A stretch of DNA of 64,000 bases, from NCBI GenBank assembly GCA_003971905.1, contig RSEE01000035.1, positions 434,001 through 498,000 of the forward strand, in the 5' to 3' direction. A model generated the notes under the pieces. It saw only the letters and a program-made list of their open reading frames with translations, was not told the DNA's origin and did not search any database. The position numbers were made by a program, and so were the translations under genes. Positions 13,051 through 62,057 of this stretch are shown here, in pieces (positions within the stretch are counted from its first letter, which is position 1; each line of letters begins with the position of its first letter). Source of the stretch: Moniliella sp. 'wahieum' (lineage: Eukaryota).

Positions 13051-13090
13051 TCAGCGCATCATGCATCATGCATCATGCATCATGCATCAG
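13051..13090. repeat. Heptamer repeat (TCATGCA)x4 preceded by TCAGCGC
   Basis: 13059-13086 four perfect TCATGCA units, upstream of the secreted-protein gene. Confidence 0.9.
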
Positions 13091-16284: not shown

Positions 16285-19200
16285 ATGCGCCTGACCAAGC
16301 GCATCAATGCGCGCCTCCAGCTCGCCGCTGCCCTCATCGAGGCCGACAACGAGTGGGTCGAGGCTCTGCACGCCGCCGAGAGCGAGCGCGAGGCCGCTCA
16401 TGCCGCCGAACACGCCGCCCTGCCCGTCGGCCTCCGGGCCGAAGTAGCGCTGCGCGAACCATTTGTGCCTCACCCCCTCCCTCCGCTCAAGCTCGCCTCC
16501 GACTCGGCCATTTTCCTTCCCTTCCGCGACGATGACGCCCCCGCGAGGCCCTGGCCCGCGCCCAGGCCCGCGCCGCCGACATGGCCGCCGCTCATGCCGC
16601 TGCGCTCGCCCACCTGACCGCTCCTCCCCCGACACCACCCCTCGCTCCTCCCCCTGACTTGGCCCACGACACTCCTCATTCCGCTCACCCCGACTTGGAT
16701 GCTGTGTCGCCCAACCTGCTTGGTGTCGATCTCCCCTCGGAGCAGGACGCTCGCCGTCGCAGCTTTCTCAGTGGACTGTCGGACCATGGCAATGTGCACC
16801 TCGAGTCTGCGTCCCCGGATGGTGCTGCCATGGAGGGCAATGGAGAGGGAGCGCCACGTGCAGACGATGACGCCCTCTCCGCATGGGGGGTGGACAAGTT
16901 TCTCTCGGCCGATGAGCGGGACAAGGTGCTGAAAGCCCGCCAACGCCAGCGGTCCTCTTCCTTGGGTTCGCCCATCCGCTCAGACGAACCCAGGATGCGA
17001 AGCGCTCGCTCCTCAGCCAGACCACCGAGACGCGTGACGGGGCTGTCCGATAGCGAGGCCATTGGCTCAGTTGCCATGGCCCGTGGGGCTTCGGATTCCC
17101 ACTCTCGCACCCGTTCTCGCTCCATCGCCAGCAGCCGGCACGTCCACACGCCCGATCCGGCATTGATGGCTCGGATTGCTGCCTATCGGCAGAATACAGA
17201 GCCGCTTGGCTCGGCTTCTCGCCCTGGCTCGCCAGAAGTGCGCGACCTCGACGCGCGTCACCAGACCGAGGAAGGACAGAACCACCGCCAAAGTGTTGCG
17301 GCCATCACTGGTAGTGTCTGGCACGAATCCCAGGATGGCGGTGCAGACCTTGCCTCGGTTCAGACCACCTCGACCCATCCTGACGAGCAATCGCTGTTTT
17401 ATCCTCGCTCTCGCCCCGTGTCTACAGGTGGGGACTCCTTTTTTGGCCTCCAGTTACCCGGTCAGACGAATCCTACCGAGAATGGGGGGAATTACAGATG
17501 GACCTCGGTCCCGCCCCGGCTCTTGATCAAGAGGCGGTAGAGACCGGTCACGATTGGGCTGGTGTGGGTGCTTTGGAGGCGGCTCATGCTGCCTTGAGCC
17601 GTCCTGGATCGGCCTTCCTTGCCACCATGTCAGCGCCTCGTGCCCCCTCGCCTGGACCTCACCACGTCCCTCTCGCCCGGGAGGGTGCGGTGCCCGGTGA
17701 CCCCTTTGCTGAGTTTTCCACCGGCGATGCTGGACGCTTTCCTACCCATTTGAACGCCAACGGAATGGCTACCGATGATGAAGATGATGCTCCCTTGGGG
17801 ATGCTGCGCCCTCGCCGCTCCGACAGAGGAACCACTTCGATGCCCATGGATGGCCTCACCACCCGTCAGTTACAGATCCTTGCCGCTGGTGGTACCTTGC
17901 CCGAGTACAATGACGACACGCGCTTTGACTCGTCTGAGAATGTGGGGCGGTCCAACCTGCTTGACCCCGAGCCCGAGTTGGACAAGGGGACGGATCGTGG
18001 CAGGGGCTTGTTTAAGCGGAAAAAACGTACTGTCGAGCCGGCGTTTGAGTCTGAAGCCAACCATGATACGCAGCGCAGGAAAGCCGACCAGCGCAAGAGC
18101 ATGTTCCGCCTCGGTCTCGGCCGGTCGGATGACGGGCCGCAAGAGCTGGGTGACTTGCTGGATGACGAAGAGGACGAATTGATTACGATGAACGCACCGG
18201 CCAATGGCACCGCCGTCAAAACGTGGGCTGGCTCGCGCGTCGCGGCGTCGATGCCCGTTTGCCCACTAACTTGGTCATGCCTGAACCGCTGGTTAACAAT
18301 ACTCAACTTCTCCAGCTTCTGCCACCGGGAATGAGGCAGGTCCAGCTCCAGCGTCAACTGATTGCTCAGGAACGCGCTCAAATCGCCGACTTGGACGACG
18401 ACCAACCTTCCGGCCGTGCCGCCGCCGCAAAAGGGATGCACGTCCCGCCCGGATTTGTACTGCATGACGGCCGCAGTTTGCCTCCCGTACGATTTCTCAC
18501 CGTGGAAGCGGCGGCGGCTCGGACGAATCGACGAGACCTGCGTACGCGGGACCCAGAGCAACGTGCCAAGGACCGGGAGGCTGCGCGGGCCAAGGCGATG
18601 GCACGCAAGAAGGAAGCGGATGAAGCGGTGGACGCCTTCCTGCGCTCTGATCGAGCGGCTGCGCTGGTGGTGCCCGTTCCGACGGACGCGCCGCCAGCGC
18701 TGCGCGAACGAGCGGCGACGGCCACCACGGCCCTGTTCCGGAACCCCCTGGTACACGATCCTGCCGACCAAGATGGGTGGGGGTGGGATACCCAAGCGTT
18801 AGCCGAGACGACCATCCTGGATGCAACGGATGAGGCAGAGCGACGCAAGGCGCGGTTCAAGCTTTCAGCTCGCCAGAAGCGCAAGCTGGCCAAGGCGAAG
18901 CGTGCACGACGCAAAGAGCGTCGCCGGAAGCGCCGTGCCCGTGATGAGATTGTTGCTTCGGGCGGCATTTGGGAAGGCGGAGCTATCTCTGACGATTCGT
19001 CTCCGGATGAATGGGGGATGCGTCCGAGGGCGACACGTCGGCCTCGTCAGACAGTTCGGAAGAGAGCGAGTCTGACCGTGGGTTGATGAAGGACCCGCTG
19101 CTGGGACCCTGTATGGAAAGAGTCTGCTCGACTTGGCCGAGCAGAGGGCCAAGACGCGGAAAAAGCAAACTCGGTACGTTTCCCTTCAGTGGGATTCCTG

Positions 19201-20631
19201 GTTCCTTGTGTGAATTCTTCTGACGTCTTGTTAGCTTTTATGGCGAAGCCGACTTGTTGGCAGTGGATGTGGGCGATGGCTCCTCCATCGCTCCCTCGGC
19301 CCAGACGGCAGGCACGTTCAAGGACAACCCTCTCGGTACTAACGATACTCGGGAGCGTATGGCCGCTGTCTTTGGTTCCTCGCACAGCGAACTGTACCAA
19401 GCCGAGATGCGCCGCCGCAAGAGGCGGATGCGATCGAGGCAGAAGAGGAAAAACAACGGCTCATTCGGGAGGGTAAGTGGGTCGAGCCAGAGCCCGAGCT
19501 TGAGTTCCTTCCCTCTACATCTACGTCCGACTTGCGCTCCATTGGCACGGCCCGGCCGGCGGATGTGGCTACTCTGTCTACCACTCGGGAAGAGGCTAGT
19601 GAGGAGGAGGTGACGCTGGAAGTGGACACGCACCTACGTTGGACGTGGATGTGCTCGCTGCGCACGCCGAGGGTGAAGGAGAGTGGTTTCCGGCGCAAGA
19701 GGAGGAGGAGATGAAGATGGTGACAATGCCCGCAAGGCCAAGAAAGCTGCCAGCACGACCAATCTGTCTCTGTGGTCTGAGGGGCGTCCGGAAGCTGCGA
19801 AGCAAACTGCTGCTGCTGCTAACGATACCCAAACCCTCGATTTGGGAGCCAACTTTGGCGGTGGTTTGGGAATTCCTGGTGTCGACGACTCGGATTCGGA
19901 GGGATCGGAGGATTTGCCTCTGGACCAACTGATGGGCCGCAAGGCGGAGGATTCGGAAGATGAGATGCCCCTGTCGCAACTCGCTAATCGCAAGCACCAG
20001 ACCCTTATGGATGAGATGGGTCTTGCGGAAGATGAATCGGATCAGGACGAGGAGGACGATGCCCCCCTAGGCGTGGTGCATCCTGACCACAAAGAGCAGC
20101 TGGCCAAGATCCAAGCTCTGGCCAAGAAACAGCGCCAACAATCGCGCAAGCTGCGTGCCGAAATCGAGGCGATCAAGGAAGACAACTCCCCTCCCCAGGC
20201 CGACGGGGAGAAGGACATGTTCCAGCTTGGCTCTGACGATGAATCGGAGAGCGACGAGGAGTTGCTGGGTGTCGCCCATCCACAAGCAGCCATCATTGCT
20301 CAGCAGGCTGCTCTGATCAAGGAACTCCAAAAGGAGAAGGCGCAAGCTGAAAAGGAACGTGTGGAGCGCCAGCGCGCTTCCAACTGGATGGGCATGCCGC
20401 CCATGGGCATGGGCATGATGCCGTTCCCCCCCATGGGTGCACCCATGCCAATGGGCATGCCGCCCGGCTTGCCCCCGGTATGCCCCTCCCCCGCCCGGGG
20501 CACGTAGCATGGTTTCCGCTTCGGTGCCTTCGATGGGCCCTGTCGTGCCCCCCCTTCCCGGCATGGGCTTGATGCCCAACGCGTCGCACGACGCTATTGA
20601 CCGATGGCGTCAGTCGTCGGCGGCAGTCTAG
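16285..20631 (+). CDS. Large uncharacterised, largely disordered fungal protein (about 1400 aa); frameshifted
   Basis: Contiguous long ORFs 16285-16617, 16581-17540, 17498-18334, 18223-19086, 19683-20507 with consistent codon bias; intron 19174-19234 (GTACGT...CTGAC...TAG) joins LYGKSLLDLAEQRAKTRKKQT to RFYG; repeated DDDAPLG/EDLPL/DEMPL motifs; ends DAIDRWRQSSAAV-stop. Confidence 0.75.
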
Positions 20632-21367
20632 CTATCGTCTCTCATTCTGGCGCATCCCCTTCCTTGTTCCATCCAATCTACACTCTGCTCTCCCTGCACC
20701 TGACACCCCCCCTCCCCTCCCTTCCCCTCCCCGGGCTTCCTGAACGGGTCATTTGCATGATCGTATCGCATGACGGATCAGTGTCTTGTTTGCCCTCTGG
20801 TCTGGTGGGCTCGCTGTCATCTTCTGCCCTTTCCTTTAGTGGGCTATATCATGCCGAGCCCAGAGGGCCCTATCAATCGATGCATCCCTGGTACACGTTC
20901 TGGGGACTGGACTTTCCCGACCATACCATAAATTCCGATCCATACACCCGCTCACCGGATAGTCTGTGACCAGGTCCGTGTTGTCTGCAACGGGTGGTAG
21001 CCACGAGACACCCGTGTTCCTTTTACTCATCCGCTCCCTCGACTGCACCGTTCACTCGCGACGGCTTGTCAGTTGAGCTCAACGTTCAACCCTCTGTTCT
21101 GCGCCTTGCACCTCTTCCCTCTTGTGATCTTGTTGTGCCACCCACGGTCGCTCCACGGATCGTTGTCTTGTGGCTTTGCTCTGTAGGATGGCTGCAGCCA
21201 CCTGACCTCTGGTCTACATGGCTACTAATGCACATGTTTCAAGCACACGACGAACGAATTGATCCAGTGGCCATATATAGCAGGGCGCCGGCGGGGCCGA
21301 ATCGGATCTTGGCAACCCGTTCGCGGTGAAATGGACAGTACGTCGCGCGACAGCCAAGGGACGACCT

Positions 21368-21668
21368 TCAGTAGGCAAACTCATCTTCAATATCCGCCAT
21401 GTCACCTTCGCCCTCATTGACGGAAAAGGACAAGAAATTTCGAGGGCGGTGGATCTCGTCCCAGAACGCGGCGGGGCGATCGAGGGTGAGGGCATACTTT
21501 AGCGTCGCAGTCCACTGTGCCGACAGCGACAGCCCGTAGTTCCATGCGCCGGACGTGGGCGTCAAGGTAGCGCCAAGTATACTAAGTATTACGGGGGCGC
21601 GAATTGTAGAGATGAGGGAAGGCGACCTTGTACTCGGTGCGGATTTGGGTGCGCATGATGGCCTTGCG
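21368..21668 (-). pseudogene. PRP8: Internally deleted relic of pre-mRNA splicing factor PRP8
   Basis: 21668-21591 encodes RKAIMRTQIRTEYKVAFPHLYNSRPR (Prp8 N-terminal-domain motif IR[TS]EYK[VI]AFP[HY]LYN); 21580-21368 encodes ILGATLTPTSGAWNYGLSLSAQWTATLKYALTLDRPAAFWDEIHRPRNFLSFSVNEGEGDMADIEDEFAY-stop (Prp8 C-terminal WNY...HRPxxFLxF tail). The two are out of frame and joined by 10 nt. Confidence 0.85.
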
Positions 21669-22035
21669 AGGCGGAGGCGGAAGCGGAGGCGGAGAGCACG
21701 GGCGGCGGCACACGCAAGCCCCCGATGGCCAGCCGAGCGTCGCAGACGCTGGCCACGCTCTTCTTCGCGTTTGGGCCACACGCCAGACGCCCGTCAGCCG
21801 CTGGCGCCTCCCTCCGGCCGGTTGACTGCAACCCACCTGCGGCGCACCTGGCCCGGCACGTGCTCCCACGGGGTAGCCAGCGGAAACGGCTACCTCACGT
21901 GACACAGCCGAGCGGAATGGAACAATCACCGGTCGACGTCATCCATTCTGTTCGATCCGCTCGGGCCGCTCTGTGCTGCTCGCCTGCGCCGCCCCCCCAC
22001 CTCCCCTCCCCTGCCGCTGCCCCCGCGTGTCCGCC

Positions 22036-22876
22036 ATGTCTGCGACGGAGCCCAAGAACGACCCGCTTGCCTCCACTGGCAACGATCCCGGCGAGGAGAA
22101 TGACCCCCACTACGAGCCGGTGATCAAGCTTGAGAAGCAGGTGGAGACCAAGACGTTCGAAGAGGATGAGAATGTCGTTTTCAAGATGTGAGCATTGCTG
22201 TTCCTTTGACTTGGGCGCAGGTTCTGGCATGGTGGCTGACCACTGACACTGACCTCTCCCTCTTTGGCCCTCTCGTGCTCGTGCCTCGCAGCCGTGCCAA
22301 GCTTTTCCGCTTCGACCCGAGAGAGGCAAACAGTGGAAAGAGCGTGGGACGGGAGATGTGCGCCTGCTCCAACACAAAGAGTCCAACAAGGTGCGTGTTG
22401 TGATGCGCCGGGACAAGACGCTCAAGGTGTGCGCGAACCACTACAGTACGTTTTTCCCCTTTCCCTCCCACATGCCGTTTGGGTTCTGACGTGCCTGTAC
22501 CTACCCCTCCTCGCCAGTCACGTCCGACATCGAGCTCAAGCCCAATGTGTCTTCGGACCGGTCGTGGGTGTACAATGTGGCTGCCGATGTGTCGGACGGC
22601 GAGCCGCAAGCCGAGACGCTGGCTATCCGCTTTGCCAATGCCGAGAGTACGTGCTTGCTGTTGTTGGTGACCTGTACTGTACTGACTCTGCTCCCCCCAG
22701 ACGCCCAAGCGTTCAAAGCTGCTTTCGAGAAAGCTCAGAAGGGCGAGACACTGGAGCCGATCGAGAAGGAGAGCAAGGAGGCGCCCAAGGAACAACCCAA
22801 GGAGGAGACCAAGGAGGAAGCTACCGAACCAGCTAAGGAAGAGCCCAAGGTGGAACCGACGACAAGCAAAGAGTAA
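22036..22876 (+). CDS. YRB1: Ran-specific GTPase-activating protein / RanBP1
   Basis: [10 protein letters not shown]...[75 protein letters not shown]; introns about 22188-22291, 22446-22517, 22647-22700. Confidence 0.95.
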
Positions 22877-52277: not shown

Positions 52278-53515
52278 TGTGAGGGGAGTGGAAGGGGCGA
52301 GGTGGTGGGGCAGAGCAGAGCCGAGAAGGGACGAACACAGCTGAGCTGAGCGAACGGCGGCGCAACTGCGGCAGGGGCTGCTGCTGTTGGCGCCGGCGGT
52401 TTAAGTTGAACTCGCCGTAGAAGCCGCCGCCATGTCCGCCACACTGCCCCTGTGCCCGCGTCGTTCCGCTGCAAGCGGGCACTGAGCGTCACACTCCCCG
52501 CCCAGCGACCGTTCGCCGCCAGGCACGGGGGGAGTGTGTGCACAGGCCATAGCCCAACACAAGAAGATCCGCCGACAGCGTGCTCAGCCAGCCGCTTCAA
52601 ATCATTGGGCTTCACCTCAAGCTTCAACCAACACACAAGCACAGTCTGGCCCAGCCGCTGCCAGGGCTGTCCCCGACAGCGCGGCTGACGTGCTGACGAT
52701 TGACGATTTGCCGGCGATCCACCTTAGGTACTCAGACTCACCCAGCGTCCAACAAGTTGAACAACGTTGTTGATTGAGGGTGGAGGCCAACAAAGCATTG
52801 GCCAACCCTGGCTAACCCTGGCCAACCTGAGATTGAAGCACCGAGGTACTGAGGCGTGAGGCCAGGTTGCCTCTGTGTACTGAGCTATTGGTGAGCTACT
52901 GAGCAATCAAATGATTACTGAGTACCGAGTCTCGGCGCTCAGGAGGCGCTGAGGCCGCGTGTGTGTAACCTGCTACTTGTCGACGAAATCGACGCGTCAG
53001 CGCGTCCGCTTCAAGCTTCAAGCTTCACGCGTCACGCCTTGGGCCTTGGGTCTTAGGCCTTGGCCTTATTGCCGAGGAAGGCCCAAATCAACAAACCCAC
53101 AGCATCATATCCTGTTGCGCCGTCGCGCGTCACGCGTCACGTTCGCCTCTGTGCCAAACTCGTGTGCCCCATGCTCGCCGTCGAACGGCTAGCTATAACC
53201 CGGTCTGCAAGTCAATAGAACCAACATCCAGGCCCCCGCGCGCATCACACCGATGCATGTATCATTTTGTGCCACTCAGGGCATTGGTCATTTTTGGGAC
53301 GCTGGACGGATCCTGCTCGGACGGTGTTTCCGGTCCGGCCAATGCCTTATCCCCGAGTTATAGGACCGGTCGGTGGTGTGCGGGCTTATAACTCCCCAGG
53401 ATCAAAGTCATTCAGCCTCGGCCCACGCTTGCACCACGAGGTGAGGCACTGAGTACTACTGACGAGGCACAGGTGAGGCCGGCAAGGCCGGTGACGACCT
53501 GATCGGGGTGGCTGG

Positions 53516-53578
53516 TGAAGCTTGAAGCTTGAAGCTTGAAGCTTGAAGCTTGAAGCTTGAAGCTTGAAGTTTAACGCG
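53516..53578. repeat. Heptamer repeat (TGAAGCT)x7
   Basis: 53516-53564 seven perfect TGAAGCT, then TGAAGTT and TAACGCG in phase. Confidence 0.97.
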
Positions 53579-58503: not shown

Positions 58504-60123
58504 GCTGCCACAATGCCACTCACCGAAATGTCTTGCGTAACCTGCGACAAGGCTACGCTGAGCCTTCAAGCTTTAAGTTTCACTAGCTTCGGAGCTGATC
58601 ATCAGCTCCAACCGTACCTGTGGATCGCGCCGTCTCTCAGCTCTCCCGTGTCTATGAGGATACGATATCTGTACCTAGTATTTATATAGTACCCACCCCA
58701 TTAATTCCACCAGGGGCTTGTGACCTTTGCATCTGTTTTCCTTCTCCCTCCCATATTCCTCAGTTTGTGGGTGCACGAGACCTGCAAAAGAAAGACCAGG
58801 AAGCCCCATGATTGATAAGATGCGATGACAGTACATCCCCCGTTTGCAAGAAAAATATATATAGGGGAAATGGAGCGTGCCAGGCATTTATACATTACCA
58901 CACCGCAGTAATGTTTCCTTAGCCTAATGATAACAGACACGTCATATGTGTTGCTCGTACTTCTAGTAGAATGACTTTGTTGATGGGAAGGTAGGATCAT
59001 TGTAAGGGTCTGGGGAGGGGGGGCGATGGAGCCGCCAACAGAGCCGGCAGGCGTGGATGTCTGGGTGCCACTAGAGCCGGCACGCGCGGTGTGGACGCGC
59101 GCTCCACACTTCATCCCCGGGCGCAAGAGAGCGCATCGGGTATTGCAACCCGCGCCGCCCGGGCCGGCTGCGATCGCAGGGGCGGAAATTTTGACGGCCG
59201 GGATTACGACGGTGGTACGGCAAGCCACTACCGCCGGCTTGCTCGTTCGCACCCATCAACGTGTGCGGGGAAGCGCAGACGGGTCTGAGTCGGTGCCGGG
59301 ATTGCTGGGTGTGTTCGGAGGCAGTGTTACGCCTGCAGTACGTTTGCCGTAAGCGCAGCACAGCAGCCGTGCGGACCCCTGCGAACCCTTCGCTTCGCAT
59401 CCGCACTCGGCCGCCCTGACCCCAGGTAGGGTCCAGCCAAGCCACAGTATTCGAGAGCATTGGCAATTGATTTGACGCGGCCTGCCGCAGTCTTGCCGCA
59501 CCACAGTGTTATGTAGATGTGCCCCCAGGCACCGTCCCTGTCCCGTGGAGCAACGCGCAAGTAACGCGAGTGCCATCCTGTAGCGTGCGTGCAACGCCCC
59601 CCTTTCGGTATCTCCACGGTCCCTGCAGACGTCCTTTTCCAGGCCAGCAACCGTATGGACAAACCCGGAAGAGGGATCATCCGTGCGTAAGCAGTGCCGG
59701 TGGGCTTTGGTGCCTGTCCTCCTACTTTCCCGCAATAAACACTCCATCTCATCATGCATTATATTACGCATTAGATCGGGTATACCCTTGGCGCGACTGA
59801 GATGCCCTGGCCGTGTGGTGCATCGCTGACGATGCCGGAGCGTAGTATGTGGCAATGCTACTTCCAGGTGGGATGGATGAGATCGATGAGATATACCTAT
59901 ACGGTGCGGCTCTGTAACGAGCCTTCCGCTCATCAGGCGGTGAGTAATGAAAAGGTAAGGTGAGATCACTAGTCACTCCGGACGGTGGGGCGGTTCCATG
60001 AGCCGCCCTCTGCGGGATACACGCGTATATATATATATTTCTGCCCGATAAAGGCCCTCGTCCACCCTTCCAATTTTGCTCTCTTCGCCTCTTCCACCAT
60101 CCAACACTCTCACTGCTTTGTCC

Positions 60124-61430
60124 ATGACCTCCGCACACACAGTAGCGGATCCGAATTCCCTGGACGGAAAGTCTTCCGTTTTGCATCCCGCCTGGCCAAC
60201 AACTGCAGTAAGTGGGCATTGTCTCCAGATTGGAGTAGTGTGCGAGAACCTGACACTCCATGTCCAGCAGTACGATGGTGGAGGAGATCTTAATGTCGGG
60301 GTTGGGCGCGGGTCAGTGAGCAGCGCTAGTTCTGACAAGACATTGGTCTCCCATGCATCGTCCAGCAAACAATTGGACAATGGCAACAAGACAGGGCCTA
60401 CGCTCACCAAAAAGTCCCATGCTAAGAAACGAGAGCCAGGGCACATCAAGCGGCCTCCCAACGCATTTATGCTTTTCCGTTCCTGGTTCCTTAAGTCAGA
60501 TGAGCTGCCCAAGGTCACCCAAATGAGCGAAGCATCGCAGATCCTCGGTGCGGTTTGGCACAATCTACCAGCCCCCGAGCGACGCGAGTGGCATGCTCGG
60601 TCGGACGAAAAGACGAGGGAACACGCGCGCATGTACCCAAATCGACGGAAGTCTAAGCTGCCCCAAACCTCGTGCGCTTCGGGCAGCATGTCATCACCAA
60701 GGAAGCCGGATGGGGCGGAGAACGGCCCACCAGGTGTTCCCCCAACGCATCGCTAGAGACGCGAACTCTGGCTTACGTCATCTTGGTTCTTCGCGAACTA
60801 GAGCACGATGGGGCCGCCTTGGAGAAGGTCAGGCAAGCACGGGGAGAAACTCGACGAATGCGCCGTGCACGTTTGGAAGGGTCAGTCGAGGACATCGCCC
60901 GGCTCGAGGCGCGGCAGCGCAACCGTATTGCTCGACGCCAAAAGAAGCAACTGGAGAATGAAAAGGAGAAGGCTACGCCTTCATCCCTGCCTCTGGCGCA
61001 ACCCATTGCGGCCTCTGTCGATCCACATCTAACCCCCCAGGGTCATCATGGGCAGATTCCCCCGCCTTGCATTTACCCATTGTCACTTCCATTCTCTTCG
61101 GAGCTCACTCCTATTACGGGAAATTCCCCTATACCTTCCTTGCCACCGCCAATGGTCTTTCCCAACACTCTGCCGCCCATCCCAGAGCCCGCGCCCACTT
61201 CCATCATGGATCCTTTTTACCCTCTCCTTCCGTCGGATCTCACTGCACTGGCTCCGAACTCCATGCCGTCCCTGTCATCCACGCAGGTGATAGGCAACGA
61301 AACAGGACCTGGATTCAGCCCAGGCCACCCCATACCCATCACCCCATCATTCCCTCCCGATCTCACTTGTCACGGGCCAAGGCGGGATGGCAAGCCCGGC
61401 GGCGCCGGTGTGCGCCCTTCGCCATCCTAA
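60124..61430 (+). CDS. HMG-box (SOX/MATA-type) transcription factor
   Basis: HIKRPPNAFMLFRS...SQILGAVWHNLPAPERREWHARS...EHARMYP; (TA)n TATA-like tract at about 60026-60038; frameshift near 60740; Pro-rich C-terminus. Confidence 0.88.
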
Positions 61431-62029: not shown

Positions 62030-62057
62030 TCAGCACTCAGTACTCAGTACTCAGTTC
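62030..62057. repeat. Heptamer array TCAGCAC (TCAGTAC)x2 TCAGTTC
   Basis: Four in-phase units seen directly. Confidence 0.8.

Follow-up and report, generated by a model that had tools for sequence, protein, structure and literature searches.

Introduction

Prp8, also known as Spp42 or PRPF8, belongs to the core of the U5 snRNP in the spliceosome, and its gene is normally present in a single copy and is essential. The C-terminal tail of full-length Prp8 regulates the Brr2 helicase. Two types of gene remains have been described that resemble the locus reported here. In post-duplication yeasts, fractionation relics are short, collinear gene fragments flanked by intact genes; gene callers overlook them, and their presence implies that a living copy is located elsewhere. 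Processed or template-switch pseudogene fragments at repaired breaks are biased toward the 3' end, internally deleted, and collinear, and carry filler at the junction. Regarding PRP8 itself, none of the papers listed for Prp8 pseudogenes in fungi mentions a PRP8 relic in its title or the opening lines of its abstract, which is not proof of absence.

In the present study, we confirm a real, non-functional PRP8 remnant that adjoins YRB1, the gene for RanBP1, in Moniliella sp. 'wahieum', a smut-related fungus. It lies in a stretch of 64 kb, the whole of which was analysed and is hereafter called the window. An initial annotation had described this remnant as a collapsed PRP8 gene, and we herein consider its identity, the reliability of the assembly around it, and its possible origins.

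Materials and Methods

Prp8 was searched for in the window by tBLASTn using 20 Prp8 proteins from Ustilaginomycotina and their relatives. The indel rate of the assembly was assessed by aligning the GCN1 reference (P0247) to positions 36629-31208 of the window on the minus strand. The synteny comparison used the contigs and locus tags under which the named proteins from the PRP8 and YRB1 searches are recorded in five basidiomycetes. A metagenome scan with an alignment of YRB1 yielded 80 loci with a total of 474 kb, among which the upstream sequence extended to at least 1.5 kb in 33, at least 3 kb in 24, and at least 8 kb in 10.

Results

The two minus-strand peptides described in the initial annotation were both present at the positions where it had placed them (Table 1), and their assignment to the N-terminal domain and the extreme C-terminus of Prp8 agreed with the results of PDB, Pfam, and tBLASTn searches. 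Read on the minus strand from 21668 to 21368, the DNA gives ..PPPLPPPPRKAIMRTQIRTEYKVAFPHLYNSRPRNT followed by a stop and, one base further on, ILGATLTPTSGAWNYG...GDMADIEDEFAY followed by a stop. The C piece, which comprises the acidic tail and the closing part of the Jab1/MPN-PROCT region, matched the Pfam family PROCT over positions 57-122 of the 123 in the profile (61 bits, where the cut-off is 23.6; E 1.4e-16) and aligned with residues 2268-2335 of the 2335 residues of human Prp8, i.e., the extreme end of the protein. All 24 of the PDB sequences that it matched at E<=1 were Prp8, with 4kit_C at the top (E 1.1e-8). Pfam assigned no family to the N piece. Among the 14 PDB sequences that its query matched at E<=1, 12 were Prp8, always at the same stretch of the human and yeast proteins (Table 1), and the best E-values were 8.2e-9 and 4.9e-6, with the matching part of the query being residues 92-116/117 of the translated frame. 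The remaining two were weak matches to evasins (E 0.31 and 0.58) and involved an unrelated upstream part of the query.

Table 1. Positions of the PRP8 remnant, its boundaries, and the neighbouring YRB1 gene in the window.
Feature	Positions	Strand	Description
N piece of PRP8 remnant	21591..21665	minus	25 codons (K..R), KAIMRTQIRTEYKVAFPHLYNSRPR; approximately residues 301-325 of human Prp8 and 372-397 of yeast Prp8
C piece of PRP8 remnant	21368..21580	minus	final 70 codons (21580-21371) and TGA stop (21370-21368)
Junction	21581..21590	minus	10 nt; no Prp8 homology
Microsatellite (GAGGCG)x4.5	21668..21694		hexanucleotide; abuts the N piece; reads PPPLPPPP in the minus-strand N-piece frame
Spacer between remnant and YRB1 start	21695..22036		not similar to Prp8 in any of its frames; lacks a Prp8-like N-terminus that starts with ATG
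YRB1 (RanBP1)	22037..22876	plus	exons 22037-22187, 22292-22445, 22518-22646, and 22701-22876; three GT..AG introns

The tBLASTn search, which had been proposed in the initial annotation, returned these two pieces of Prp8 and no others in the window at E<1e-3. Approximately 96 of approximately 2370 Prp8 codons (approximately 4%) are left, corresponding to approximately 290 bp of a gene of approximately 7 kb. The estimate that more than 90% of the gene has gone holds, with approximately 96% being absent from both the locus and the whole window. Identity to the Prp8 proteins of Ustilaginomycotina was 81-88% in the N piece and up to 91% in the C piece.

The remnant does not carry the single open frame of approximately 2300-2400 codons with PRO8NT, PROCN, RRM_4, U5/U6 snRNA-binding, domain IV, JAB, and PROCT; its domain content is confined to the PROCT positions given above and the stretch of 25 residues from the N-terminal domain. 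Neither piece is interrupted internally by a stop or a frame break. Read from stop to stop (21368-21793), the C-piece frame contains no Met before that in ..GDM, which is within the final 11 residues, and, thus, the C piece cannot be translated alone. The sole ATG in the frame of the N piece is at 21656-21654, encoding the Met within KAIMRTQ, and a TAG in the junction (21584-21582) closes this frame three codons past the end of the homology. As judged from its frames, the remnant appears to have no function as a protein because a start codon is lacking in the frame of the C piece and the N-piece frame is closed by the TAG.

When the remnant was aligned with the nearest intact proteins and frameshifts were allowed, Prp8 homology ended sharply at ..NSRPR (21591) and resumed at ILGATL (21580), and the two pieces retained their original order and orientation. 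The junction and the initial 9 nt of the C piece make up an imperfect tandem copy (ATACTT, 3 nt, ATACTT). Since R precedes ILG in intact relatives (..LSDRILG..) and is also the final residue of the N piece, the join may have been made at a codon common to both, with the addition of a short templated filler. The junction places the N and C pieces +1 out of phase, and this offset is the only frame disruption in the remnant. The possibility that the 11 nt GTAATACTTAG represent a micro-intron was rejected because they are too short and do not restore the frame.

Upstream of the N piece, the letters of the "in-frame PPPLPPPP tract" noted in the initial annotation are present and in the frame of this piece, but are those of the hexanucleotide microsatellite (Table 1). 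The proline tract and the frames upstream of it were considered as an N-terminus of Prp8, but this was not supported, as they consist of low-complexity sequence alone and contain no ATG. No A-run was found in the 600 nt downstream of the remnant's stop, and a repeat scan of 20500-22100 revealed no convincing flanking direct repeats or target-site duplication, with short, imperfect families only.

The window also contains a recurrent heptamer pattern, in which five bases with T-N-A are followed by two mirrored bases and the same five bases; it occurred 34 times versus 0.14 times in block shuffles. Examples are located at 13057-13089, 53009-53027, 53521-53567, and 62035-62053. Almost all of the centres are TCA or TGA, and several occurrences form tandem arrays. 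No occurrence was detected in the relic region (20500-22040). An interpretation of the junction as one of these heptamer scars was rejected based on this absence and on the spacing of the junction repeat, which is 9 nt and not 7.

Regarding the lineage of the remnant, five of 88 candidates among longer proteins matched the C piece at E<=1e-3. The best was P0003, a 316-residue JAB+PROCT fragment with 91% identity (63/69); Prp8 of Violaceomyces palustris was 64% identical. Identity to P0023, a 2249-residue protein, was 61/69. The tail ..VNEGEGDMADIEDEFA is common to the relic and to P0003 and P0023, its closest intact relatives, which indicates that the relic derives from the PRP8 of its own lineage. 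P0003 and P0023 were identical to each other at 290/316 positions. Therefore, the decay of the remnant seems slight, with the C piece being no further from an intact relative than one intact relative is from another. In the N piece, the relic alone has A, M, and T in K-A-I-M-R-T-Q, the corresponding sequence in the relatives being K[VI]II-R-[QH]-[QP]. In the C piece, HRPR replaces the HRPQ of HRPQNFL, with Q being present in 10/10 of the relatives listed and S in human Prp8, and the piece ends in ..EFAY rather than ..EFA, i.e., with one extra codon before the stop. Further changes are few and at variable positions, and most of the relic-specific changes are located where functional Prp8s vary. 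This mild decay suggests that constraint was lost recently or that the pieces are close or equal to the living gene.

Along the 1797 aligned codons of GCN1, 1472 were identical (82%), and neither an in-frame stop nor an intron-sized gap was observed; nevertheless, the frame was broken 18 times, by one missing base in 13 cases, by two missing bases or one extra base in four, and by two extra bases in one. The coexistence of 18 indels with zero nonsense codons points to consensus errors and not to a decaying gene. This places the assembly at approximately one indel of 1-2 nt for every 300 coding bases, in most cases a loss of bases, and at this rate the +1 offset in Prp8 and the frame break in YRB1 cannot be counted as real mutations. 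The initial annotation had called the two pieces out of frame with each other. They are indeed offset by +1 across 10 nt, but the offset is unreliable in an assembly with this indel rate. The absence of PRP8 on a kilobase scale is of another nature, and small consensus indels do not explain it.

As previously noted in the initial annotation, the remnant is head-to-head with YRB1, the ATG of which is located at 22037 on the plus strand, divergent from the remnant. The use of GT-AG introns in this genome was also borne out, as YRB1 carries three. Since these canonical introns make splicing necessary, a working PRP8 would have to exist in this organism. YRB1 is well conserved apart from one frame break in exon 2, at approximately 22317-22330 in a GA/A-rich run. 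If real, this break would mean that an essential gene is also broken; however, a consensus error like those in GCN1 is the most likely explanation. On the other side of the relic, a series of long open frames with a high content of Ala, Arg, Glu, and Pro occupies 16536-20504 on the plus strand, tail-to-tail with the relic; no Pfam family was assigned to them, and they would serve as a second synteny anchor. Elsewhere in the window, an open frame at 60052-60753 on the plus strand encodes an HMG box (E 4.9e-11), with a weaker, sub-threshold match to the MATalpha HMG box.

PRP8 and YRB1 were near neighbours in one of the five named basidiomycetes: in Wallemia hederae, E3P99_02619 and E3P99_02621 are two tags apart on one 104,673-nt contig. 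They were not adjacent in the four Ustilaginomycotina. In Tilletia maclaganii, the two genes (V8E36_001554 and V8E36_001493) are 61 tags apart on one contig, while PRP8 and YRB1 are on different contigs in Malassezia furfur (1,622,862 and 3,076,535 nt, respectively), Ustilago loliicola (1,670,772 and 830,901 nt), and Testicularia cyperi (1,379,322 and 2,003,166 nt). Prp8 was present in none of the 80 metagenomic YRB1 loci (E<1e-8). None of these loci shares another gene of the window, which suggests that they do not come from close relatives and are too distant to be of help. Accessions of Tilletia horrida carried nothing that bears on whether the two genes are adjacent.

Two further observations were made during these searches. 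One metagenomic contig of 1387 nt (L077) carries two tandem YRB1-like copies at 344-1355. In Wallemia mellicola, a 366-residue NAD(P)-binding protein was placed within a 90% cluster of Prp8 (P0032), apparently through a fused gene model of 2655 residues; its tag adjoins that of PRP8 (E3Q24_01361/01362), and it is the immediate neighbour of PRP8 in that species.

Discussion

We consider it somewhat probable that the locus is a dead remnant at the former site of PRP8, divergent from YRB1, from which internal and 5' sequences were lost once a different copy of the gene had assumed its role. This would involve a minimum of two DNA events. The first may have been an internal loss of approximately 5.9 kb of coding sequence, which joined codon approximately 329 to codon approximately 2300 and left the 10-nt filler, which partly copies the adjoining bases, as in end-joining repair. 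The second would have been a loss or truncation of codons 1 to approximately 303, the boundary of which is now the microsatellite. The replacing copy, the existence of which is suggested by the working introns next door, may reside at another site in the genome or on a chromosome that is homeologous or allelic. The neighbouring gene argues for a deletion in place: it would be a coincidence for fragments to land by chance beside a gene that neighbours PRP8 in Wallemia, so that an old linkage followed by deletion in place is plausible. The two genes also share a contig in T. maclaganii, and two independent proximities of PRP8 and YRB1 by chance appear unlikely. An in-place origin has to be weighed against the location of the two genes on different contigs in three of the five genomes, the 80 metagenomic loci in which Prp8 was not found, the slight decay, and the poor consensus quality of the assembly.

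These same observations bear on the next explanation, an ectopic capture, in which PRP8 was never at this site and two stretches of the gene or its cDNA were copied upstream of YRB1 during break repair or template switching. PRP8 is not beside YRB1 in four of the five named genomes or in the metagenomic loci, there is little decay, and the pieces are short, biased toward the 3' end with the natural stop included, collinear, and joined by filler, which fits template jumping. We nevertheless regard this as a doubtful, though not negligible, explanation, since a captured copy is at odds with the lack of a poly(A) run downstream of the stop and of flanking direct repeats in the region scanned, and would have landed beside the near neighbour of PRP8 in W. 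hederae by coincidence.

An improbable explanation is that a full PRP8 is present at this position and that the contig represents an artefact or an unrepresentative molecule, whether through a mis-join or chimeric read or through a deletion that is rare or heterozygous. The frame breaks in GCN1, which are unaccompanied by stops, and that in YRB1 show that the assembly is prone to error, and the almost undecayed state of the pieces is consistent with such an artefact. However, the errors observed are indels of 1-2 nt and not kilobase losses, and an island of 75 nt between two losses, together with a filler junction, would be an unusual assembler error. Furthermore, three substitutions, which are conservative and unique, fall within seven residues of the N piece, and KAIMRTQ, HRPR, and the extra final codon distinguish the remnant from every intact relative listed.

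It is very improbable that the locus is a retained mini-gene, in which the ATG at 21656-21654 opens a fusion of approximately 95 codons between the N piece and the Prp8 tail and the +1 offset is an extra-base assembly error. In support of this reading, removing one base from the 10-nt junction would bring the pieces in frame, with the filler then repeating, in three codons, how the C piece begins, the change from Ile to Met provides the start, the pieces are uninterrupted, and the indel error rate is high, but the error would have to hit approximately 12 of approximately 290 nt, a junk relic would be out of frame two thirds of the time anyway, the Jab1/MPN core that presents the tail is missing, with PROCT positions 57-122 only, and no orthologous mini-gene is known from a search that covered longer proteins only. 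If the locus did encode such a fusion, its product, a 22-residue N stretch followed by the three-codon repeat and the last 70 residues of Prp8 with the C-terminal tail, would be an independent decoy for, or regulator of, the activation of the spliceosome that arose from a gene remnant.

Returning to a deletion in place, a remnant that marks the old locus would date the relocation, or the loss of a homeologue, of a core spliceosome gene, and may serve as a possible marker of past duplication or hybridization of the genome. Considering that PRP8 is normally single-copy and essential, the remnant indicates that, in the fairly recent past, this lineage either had a second copy or relocated the gene. 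The more useful lesson of the relic is that frame-based "broken gene" calls in this genome need read support.

In comparisons with known systems, the remnant resembles Prp8 in its alignment to residues approximately 301-325 and 2268-2335 of the human protein; in contrast to full Prp8, it lacks the PROCN, RT-like, linker, endonuclease-like, and RNase H-like domains and nearly all of Jab1/MPN, and it has no usable frame. Neither the poly(A) remnant nor the target-site duplication of processed pseudogenes was seen in the regions examined, and the remnant shares with template-switch fragments a bias toward the 3' end, internal deletion, collinearity, and junction filler. As in fractionation relics, the fragments are short and collinear, whereas the remnant has barely decayed, and the neighbouring genes look whole apart from indels of the assembly type. 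Taken together, the remnant is an ordinary pseudogene relic of a known family, small and missed by annotation.
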